Assembly: GCF_030013595.1 (NCBI RefSeq)
Contig: NZ_CP122768.1
Direction: 5' to 3' (one strand)
Source of the DNA: Escherichia coli
Lineage (GTDB): Bacteria; Pseudomonadota; Gammaproteobacteria; Enterobacterales; Enterobacteriaceae
Length of the DNA: 64,000 bases
Position numbers: made by a program. How positions within the stretch are numbered: position 1 is the stretch's first letter; each line of letters opens with the position of its first letter. Positions 43,601 to 46,600 of this stretch are shown piece after piece.

Positions 43601-46600
43601 CGCCGAACTGGCGGACGATGCGGCTGCCGTTTCTGAGGCTCCTGCGCGGGTTTCCGACGCTTTCGCATTCGTCTCAGATGTCTTCGCTGCGGAAGCAGAA
43701 CTCGCAGCTGCAGTGGCCTGTTCAGTGGCTTCGCCAGCCTTCGTTGTGGCTGTTGAAGCGGACGATGCAGCGCTTTCTGCCGATTTTCCGGCGGCAGCGG
43801 CACTGGCTACAGCCTCCCCTGCCTTCACTGATGCCTCACGGGCCGATGATGCAGCCGCGGTTTCTGAGCCTGCCGCAGCTGAGGCACTCTGTCCCGCTGC
43901 CGTTTCAGAAGACTTAGCGTTTGTCTCAGACGTCTTTGCCGCCTTCGCGGAATTTCCTGCCGCCGTTGCCGAGGAGGCTGCACTACTGGCACTCGAGGCT
44001 GCGCTCGTTTCTGATGATTTTGCCGCCTCTTTTGAAGCCGACGCATCCCTGGCTGAGGAGGCAGCTTCTGACGCTTTCGTGGTCGCGGTGGATGCAGAGG
44101 TGGCTGCTGATTGTTGTGACGCTGCAGCATTCGTTTCAGACGTTTTCGCGGCACCGGCACTGGTGGCCGCCGCGCTTTTTGAGGACTCTGCAGCGGCAGC
44201 ACTTTTTGAGGCTTCAGTGGCCTTTGTTGATGCCGTTCCTGCGCTGGAAGACGCTGACTGAGCCGACGAAGCGGCCTGTCCGGCTGACGTGCTGGCTGCA
44301 CGTGCTGAATCTGCAGCATCAGTCGCATGGGTTGCCGCCTCACGGGCAGATGTGCTGGCATCACTGGCTGACTTCTTCGCGGCTGCCGTGTTCTGTGCCA
44401 CCACGGACGCGTTACGCGCCACCTCTTCCACCATCAGTTCAAAACGGCGCAGTGCCTCCGGACGGGCATCATCCTCCGTCATGGCACCGAGAAAATCATT
44501 CAGCGTACCGGGTTGAGAATCTTCATACACGGTGATGGTCCCGGCATGCGAAGGCGGAAAACCTTCAACCAGCAGGGTGACACTGTACTGACCGTACTCA
44601 ACGTCCATGCTGTAACGCCCGGCTTCATCCGGATTTTCTGAGGCCAGCGTGTTCACCACCACCGTGGTACTGTTACGTTTTGCTTTCAGCTGGATTGTGC
44701 AGTTCTGTACCGGTTTTCCTGTGCCGTCTTTCAGTACACCTGAAATCTTTACTGCCATATTCACCCCACAAAAAAGCCCGCCTGAACCGGCGGGCTGTCA
44801 TAACACTGTGTTACCTGGCTAATCAGAATTTATAACCGACACCCACGATGAAACCGTCAGTGCGCCAGTCACCACTGCCGGAGCCTTCATAAGCGACATC
44901 AATGGCCACGGATTCGGTCGGGTTAAACTGCACGCCAGCCCCCCACGCCAGAGACGTGTTGCTGTGGCGACCGTCATCACTTCCGGTCAGCACGTCGTGC
45001 GTTTTCCCCTTGTTATCAGTTACGCGGAGATAATCCCCGGAAAAAGTCGACACACGGCTGTAAGCCACACCCGCCATCGCATACGCGCTTAACCATTCAT
45101 TCACGCGCACAGACGGCCCCGCCATCACGCTGAACCAGCGGTTACGCACGGAATCTTCATGCCAGCGGGTATCGCTGTAACGGGTCAGCTGGCGATTCTT
45201 GTCTCCTGCATAGCTGAATGACGTCACCAGCCCCAGTGTGTCCGTAAACTCATAACGGTATTTCACGTTAATCCCGTTCAGATCATCGCTGCCGGGAACG
45301 TTCGTCGAGGTATAAAGATAGCCCGCGCTCAGCGTGGACTGATGTTCAGACGCCCATGCAGGCGCACAGGATGCGGCCAGACAAATGGCTGCGGACAAAA
45401 TGGCGGCATAAAGTTTACGCATAATTACCTCTCGCTTTTCTGCAATAAAAAAGGCACCATTTCTGGTGCCCTTATCTGGGTTATAAATATTTCAACGGAT
45501 ACTGATACCGGAAGCCGCTTTTTTGGTCACTATCACCGTACAGTCTGTGATGTTACCTGCACCCTGATTGCCTTTCTGGAAAATCCTGAACTCCAGGGTG
45601 ACGTTCCCACCACCACTCGGCATATCAATAACCGCGCTGTAACTCCCGGGAACTGCCCCTCTGGTTTCTCTGGATGCGATTAAGACACCGTTTTTGCGAA
45701 CTTCAAAACCATAACCCGTGTACCTTGTACCTCCCGGGTTATTACCGCTCCCCGGATTGTCATACGCCACACCGTTAAAAATAATGGGCGGAATAATGAT
45801 TTGACGGTCAAAGTTATGATCATCGCTGATGGTGACGGTAACCGTCCCGTCGGGTGTTTCCGTGTTCCCCCACGTACCAGCCCTTTTCGGGAATGGTCTG
45901 GATACCGCTTTAACGAAGTCCCCCCTGACCTGGTTCGCCTCCAGCATGCCCTTAATCGTACAGTTCTCATTTACCGTGACGTTGTTGAGCGTTCCGGCGT
46001 TCGCGTTCACGTTACCGCTGATATCCGCATTTCTCGCCGTCAGCCGACCGTCAGGTGTCAGGGAAAATGCCGGTGGATATCCACCGCTGGTAATGGTGGG
46101 AGCCGTCAGATATTTCAGGAACACTTCATTCATGAATATCTGATCACCCTGACCAACAAACATCGGCTTTGTGTTGCCATTTGCAGGATTAATCATCGCA
46201 ATCCTGTCTGCCGCCAGCAGCACCTGACTCTGCATGCCGTCGGGGGTGTTCTCAATACCGGCACCGATACCCGCGATATAAAGGCGTCCGTCCTGCATCT
46301 GCTGCAGCTTCACAGCCCACATGCTGTTCAGGTTATTACTTGTATCAACCTGAACCTGCTGTATCTGCTGAATTGCTGCACTCTGGTCTTCCAGTTTCTT
46401 ATTGACGGTCTGTGTGATTTCATTGCTGACATCCGTAATGGACGTCCTGATTTCAGCCAGGTCAGGCGCAAGCTGACCGTTATCAATCTGCGTCCACAGC
46501 TCCTGAGCCAGATGGGTTTTCCCTATCTCGCCTTTGAAAAAATCCAGGTAACCTTCCGCATCATCGCTCGCCCGACCGACGGCCTCCACGAATGCCGATT

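Follow-up and report, generated by a model that had tools for sequence, protein, structure and literature searches.

The tail tip protein J of an Escherichia coli lambdoid prophage combines a lambda/434-like hub, a long shaft and a phage 434-class receptor-binding domain

We observed that the tail tip protein J encoded by a lambdoid prophage in Escherichia coli (assembly GCF_030013595.1, contig NZ_CP122768.1) is a mosaic of three parts. Residues 1-820 form a module resembling that of phages lambda and 434, residues ~821-960 form a long shaft, and residues ~1011-1165 form a receptor-binding domain (RBD) of the phage 434 class. We hold this account, with OmpC as the most likely porin, with good confidence. 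The stretch of DNA analysed (64,000 nucleotides, referred to as the window) carries the late region of the prophage, which lies on the minus strand. The features discussed are listed in Table 1.

Table 1. Positions of the prophage and host features discussed in the text, numbered from the first nucleotide of the window
Feature	Position	Strand	Remarks
hyaAB, hydrogenase-1 genes, hya operon beside prophage	37823-40758	-	
serT, tRNA-Ser(UGA), beside prophage end	41158-41245	+	
tfa, tail fibre assembly chaperone	41694..42278	-	intact; PF02413; 92% identity to lambda Tfa
stf, side tail fibre	42278..44764	-	intact, 828 aa; PF08400 + Collar domains
Terminator-like GC hairpin + T-run just downstream of lom	44775-44796	-	consensus pattern match only
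lom (Ail/Lom outer-membrane protein), 434-type allele	44823..45422	-	PF06316
Terminator-like GC hairpin + T-run between J and lom	45450..45473	-	consensus pattern match only
Gene J, tail tip attachment / central tail fibre protein	45492..48989	-	intact ORF, 1165 aa
J residues 1011-1165, RBD of phage-434 (h434) class	45495..45959	-	
J residues 821-960, long shaft (alpha-helical shaft + top of central straight fibre)	46110..46529	-	
28-aa insertion vs lambda and 434 J, residues ~836-863	46401..46484	-	alignment gaps
J residues 1-820, hub domains + two FNIII/Ig domains, lambda/434-like module	46530..48989	-	
Gene I, tail tip protein	49050..49691	-	213 aa; PF06805
Terminase large-subunit gene A	61825..63750	-	lambda A length; ~99% identical to lambda gpA

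J is a member of the lambda gpJ family by its domain series, gene position and core identity. Six Pfam families were found in the lambda order (Phage-tail_3, FNIII-A_GpJ, Ig_J, Ig_J_second, Phage_Tail_Tip and Ig_GpJ_C), all above their gathering scores. The position of the gene fits the tail gene block H-M-L-K-I-J-lom-stf-tfa, with matching ORF order and lengths. Over the whole protein, identity was 82% to lambda J and 90% to 434 J. The ORF had the length that a first-pass annotation of this DNA had given for it, and the length and C-terminal end that the annotation had stated for lambda J (1132 aa, ending ...VMVIKKQALGISVV) matched the reference (NC_001416). That annotation had flagged positions 45492-45950 as a tail-tip C-terminus that differs from lambda and may alter receptor specificity. 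This span corresponds to the last 152 codons of J plus the stop, and the peptides cited for it were found there.

We compared J with lambda J segment by segment. Residues 1-820 aligned without gaps at 97.4% amino acid identity to lambda and 98.5% to 434. DNA identity over this module was 91-100% in 150-nt windows. Identity to lambda was ~36% over residues 821-900 (aligned positions only, with a 28-aa insertion inside the segment), 73% over residues 901-1010 and 41% over residues 1011-1165, where several indels left 11 gapped positions. The proposed lambda-like N-terminal stretch of ~1000 residues thus held for residues 1-820 and failed from ~821 onwards. The proposed divergence of the C-terminus from lambda J was real: in the pairwise alignment, the last ~155 residues were far from essentially identical to their lambda counterpart. 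J is 33 residues longer than lambda J, of which 28 are the shaft insertion and a net 5 come from indels in the RBD loops. A location of the extra length in the receptor domain was therefore ruled out, the net gain of 5 in the RBD being the same as in 434.

The shaft module (residues 821-960) was ~50% identical to both lambda and 434 and 96-98% identical to ev099, Lambda_2G7a and VT1-Sakai. It was present in 65 phage records at 95-99% identity. The 28-aa insertion falls in the region aligned to the alpha-helical shaft of lambda, whose helices comprise residues 809-840 and 841-861 (PMC11101478). We do not interpret the insertion as a simple four-heptad extension of the helix, as the inserted NGQLAP is a likely helix breaker. 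Residue F952 (~46134-46136), the equivalent of lambda J F924, is conserved. In lambda J, it is F924 that triggers HepS, an abortive-infection nuclease encoded by a prophage (PMC13043305), so defences of the HepS type would be expected to be activated by J.

The long shaft also occurs with other RBDs, as in Lambda_2G7a (an A8-like RBD, 43% identical to the RBD here) and VT1-Sakai (41%), and the 434 RBD is found with both short and long shafts. These combinations rule out that the shaft insertion and the RBD form one co-inherited unit. The shaft module and the RBD assort independently, and published work describes the specificity region of J recombining on its own (PMC6646904).

We then assigned the RBD to a class. 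The family PF12421 (Ig_GpJ_C, [quoted passage not shown]) was matched at J residues 1030-1164. Residues 1011-1165 were 91.6% identical to 434 J with zero gaps and an identical C-terminal end. The lengths of the variable loops L1-L4 differed from lambda by +2 aa in L1 (TW), +6 aa in L2 (the NPGSGN region) and +1 aa in L3, with a shorter L4, and the gaps were the same as those of 434. Two other classes were considered and rejected. The lambda-type LamB-binding RBD (lambda residues ~983-1132) showed the 41% identity and 11 gapped positions given above, and the A8-type OmpC-binding RBD (PDB 9wcb) was 42-44% identical.

To place the RBD among known sequences, we searched with the last 152 residues against 50,697 phage records (tblastn). 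We observed 74 records at 80% identity or higher and 169 below 60%. The former group takes in 434, lambda h434 imm21, mEp460, cdtI and many Stx2 phages. A word-indexed protein search with the RBD returned mostly fragments and little diversity, and an exhaustive representative search was used instead. This HMMER scan of 1.84 billion representative proteins yielded only 111 relatives. Full-length matches were bimodal, at either 85-100% identity (434 class) or 30-45% (lambda, A8, VT1 and others), and no intact RBD of intermediate identity (between 45% and 85%) was found in the scan. This split, lacking intact intermediates, indicates that the RBD is a member of a discrete, known class. An exactly matching RBD fragment is already public as "host specificity protein J" (P0001). 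The J tip is thus the classical 434 host-range module, a common and long-known allele acquired in a module swap of an ordinary, already described kind.

The closest relatives of J differ from one another in how the modules are combined. Phage 434 (OL657227, CPT_434B_21) and lambda h434 imm21 (OM418627) share the RBD (91.6%), residues 1-820 (98.5%) and lom (95%) with the prophage. The J of 434 differs in its length of 1137 aa, its short lambda-type shaft (residues 821-960 ~50% identical) and 13 RBD substitutions. Lambda gpJ (NP_040600; PDB 8xck, 8xcj, 8iyk) shares domain order, gene neighbourhood and RBD fold; it differs in a shaft that is 28 aa shorter, in the sequence of its RBD with loop indels, and in having LamB as its receptor. 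A J protein of 1165 aa with both the long shaft and a 434-class RBD was found in ev099 (LR597635), cdtI (AB285204), Kati, Ayreon, mEp332 and phi458. The J genes of these phages were 94-95.6% identical in DNA to J here over the whole gene, with allelic differences only. For ev099, identity was 97.5% in the shaft and 89.7% in the RBD.

Another close relative is gpJ WP_475690621.1, encoded by a serT prophage of the pig E. coli HCP5S3_I2 / LCP30S3_I5. It is also 1165 aa long and shares the serT/hya site. Codons 851-1165 (the last 315) are 100% identical in DNA to J here, and all 22 amino acid differences lie within residues 1-812. The region flanking its gene (lom, stf, tfa, serT and hya) was 99.8-99.95% identical to the window. 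In HCP5S3_I2, the related prophage of ~46 kb fills the serT-yccA interval, with its integrase at the far end.

Structure prediction of the C-terminal domain, which had been suggested as a check, was carried out with AlphaFold2 on the RBD monomer using an alignment of 24 diverse RBD sequences. The model was all-beta with a mean pLDDT of 81.3. Its best matches in the PDB were 8xck, 9wcb, 9wca and 8xcj (E ~1e-13, TM 0.77-0.79). Of these entries, 8xck is the closed RBD of the lambda central fibre and 8xcj its LamB-bound form, while 9wca is an A8 gpJ fragment and 9wcb is A8 with the OmpC of EDL933. The predicted fold is the Ig-like beta-sandwich of gpJ RBDs (TM 0.78 to both 8xck and 9wcb). The RBD of the A8 gpJ chimera (9wca, 9wcb) has this fold too, but belongs to the other class named above. 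A sequence search for a solved RBD structure of the 434 class returned none.

In the alignment, a conserved framework (GD.VK, FP, GT.TV, DD..FDRQ, NG, DMP.G.G and KK...GI), with 28 positions invariant across classes, is broken by four hypervariable, indel-rich segments. These segments coincide with indel hotspots that PMC6646904 places in the specificity region of J, close to lambda residues 1012, 1048, 1077 and 1107. From the strand order of the model, we infer that they would be the bottom loops L1-L4. The L1-L4 bottom loops of lambda contact LamB (PMC11101478).

We assessed which receptor the tip may use. Passages in PMC3509688 and PMC11101478 that cite Fuerst & Bingham 1978 state that lambda with the 434 gene in place of its own J binds OmpC, the receptor of 434. 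Because the RBD here is of the 434 class and 91.6% identical to this characterised allele, OmpC rather than LamB is the expected receptor, and the tails of the prophage most likely dock on OmpC. The earlier suggestion of a receptor other than LamB is thus supported by homology, the RBD being much closer to the OmpC-using 434 than to lambda. OmpC use is not unique to the 434 class. The gpJ-family RBDs of A8 and phi330 use OmpC by experiment (PMC11338833, PMC12502783), and several RBD classes have either evolved or retained this receptor use. In a published comparison of the RBDs of phi330, 434 and lambda, these three were 35-40% identical pairwise. The supplements of PMC11338833 contained no sequences for the Eligo gpJ chimeras 1A2 and A8, which would show whether 1A2 is of the 434 class. 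A literature search on the receptors of PhiR phages, HannyBb, Tritos, mEp460 and ev099 returned nothing usable.

By analogy with the lambda and A8 gpJ structures, the triggering mechanism would be carried over to this tail. The central fibre would end in three RBD copies, and the four variable bottom loops of each would enter an outer-membrane porin trimer. Docking on the porin would then spread the base of the RBD, twist the fibre, flip the shaft and open the tube.

Deployment of J depends on the rest of the prophage, and gene A carries a defect. The lambda codon GAG (Glu443) is replaced by an amber codon, TAG, at codon 443 (window 62422-62424), giving a product of 442 of 641 aa from a gene that otherwise encodes a ~99% lambda-like gpA. 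The prophage may therefore not package DNA, unless the stop reflects an error in sequencing or is bypassed by suppression. If it does not package, this locus would yield no infectious particles that carry J. It is possible, though less likely than not, that J rides along unused in a prophage defective for packaging, persisting because incoming lambdoid phages can recombine with it or because the decay is recent. The intact 641-aa terminase of the related HCP5S3_I2 prophage is consistent with this reading, as is the amber codon itself. However, W to J, lom, stf and tfa, which make up the rest of the late genes in the window, are intact with lambda-like lengths, and terminase is not needed for tail assembly. 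The single base change could also be very recent or an error, or be suppressed in a host of the supE/supF type. In any case, the defect bears on the deployment of J; the identity of its domains is unaffected.

We also considered whether the RBD, though of the 434 class by descent, has acquired substitutions that shifted or broadened its receptor (to OmpF, PhoE, OmpN or similar) or narrowed the set of OmpC alleles that it accepts. Most of the 13 substitutions that separate the RBD from that of 434 are K/R or I/V exchanges, with S/N changes too. Seven of them lie in or beside the variable L1-L4 segments (P1032, R1036, A1037, V1074, R1110, V1113 and G1143), and four K-to-R changes in the RBD were absent from 16 other distinct class sequences compared. 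For lambda and phi21, gaining the use of OmpF or OmpC can take as little as one to a few substitutions in the RBD (PMC11336670, PMC6646904), so the 13 differences could matter. Furthermore, OmpC-targeting gpJ variants, including chimeras, tell OmpC alleles apart (PMC11338833). Against a shift, the changes are chemically conservative, the RBD has no indels relative to 434, and at G1143, I1136 and Q1138 it carries the residue found in most class members, with 434 itself the outlier at these three positions. We consider such a shift unlikely. It is a little less likely still that the RBD allele, in combination with a shaft longer by 28 aa, recognises a different set of OmpC alleles or an additional porin; if it did, the allele would be a natural example of fine-scale retargeting inside the 434 class. 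That the tip still binds LamB, its divergence being neutral for receptor choice, is very improbable: the Ig-like framework is conserved and the fold shared, but indels from lambda fall in all four receptor-contacting loop regions, identity is at the level given above, and the near-identical 434 allele is the textbook case of LamB loss and OmpC gain. An OmpC-directed tip of the 434 class remains our preferred reading.

We also examined the genes around J. Lom was identical to 434 Lom at 190 of 199 residues and 47% identical to lambda Lom. A blastn block of 89.6% identity to 434 (window 44337-46323) starts inside J, spans lom and reaches into the 5' part of stf. On the other side of J, protein I was 79% identical to lambda I. 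The first-pass annotation had put it at about 10 residues shorter than in lambda, and this proved correct (213 against 223 aa), with a single 10-aa deletion as the only gap, at lambda residues ~124-133. The deletion sits in the hydrophobic, Gly/Ala-rich middle of the protein, which is part of the H1/H2 region. For this region, the paper on the lambda tail-tip structure reportedly predicts membrane activity.

The side tail fibre gene stf provides this tail with a further determinant of adsorption. The middle of its product is long and rich in Ala and Ser, the tip consists of His-rich repeats, and the last 245 residues are 69% identical to the C-terminus of lambda Stf. The Stf of Ur-lambda binds OmpC, and by analogy the side fibres and the tip of this prophage may both target OmpC.

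For annotation, these data suggest that the tails of the prophage should probably be read as OmpC-directed, with the host range of 434, and not as LamB-directed. This would be useful for predicting which strains the prophage could infect or swap tail modules with. Beyond annotation the result carries little weight and leaves current understanding unchallenged. It adds one more case of the known modular shuffling in gene J, in which hub, shaft and RBD behave as separate units.
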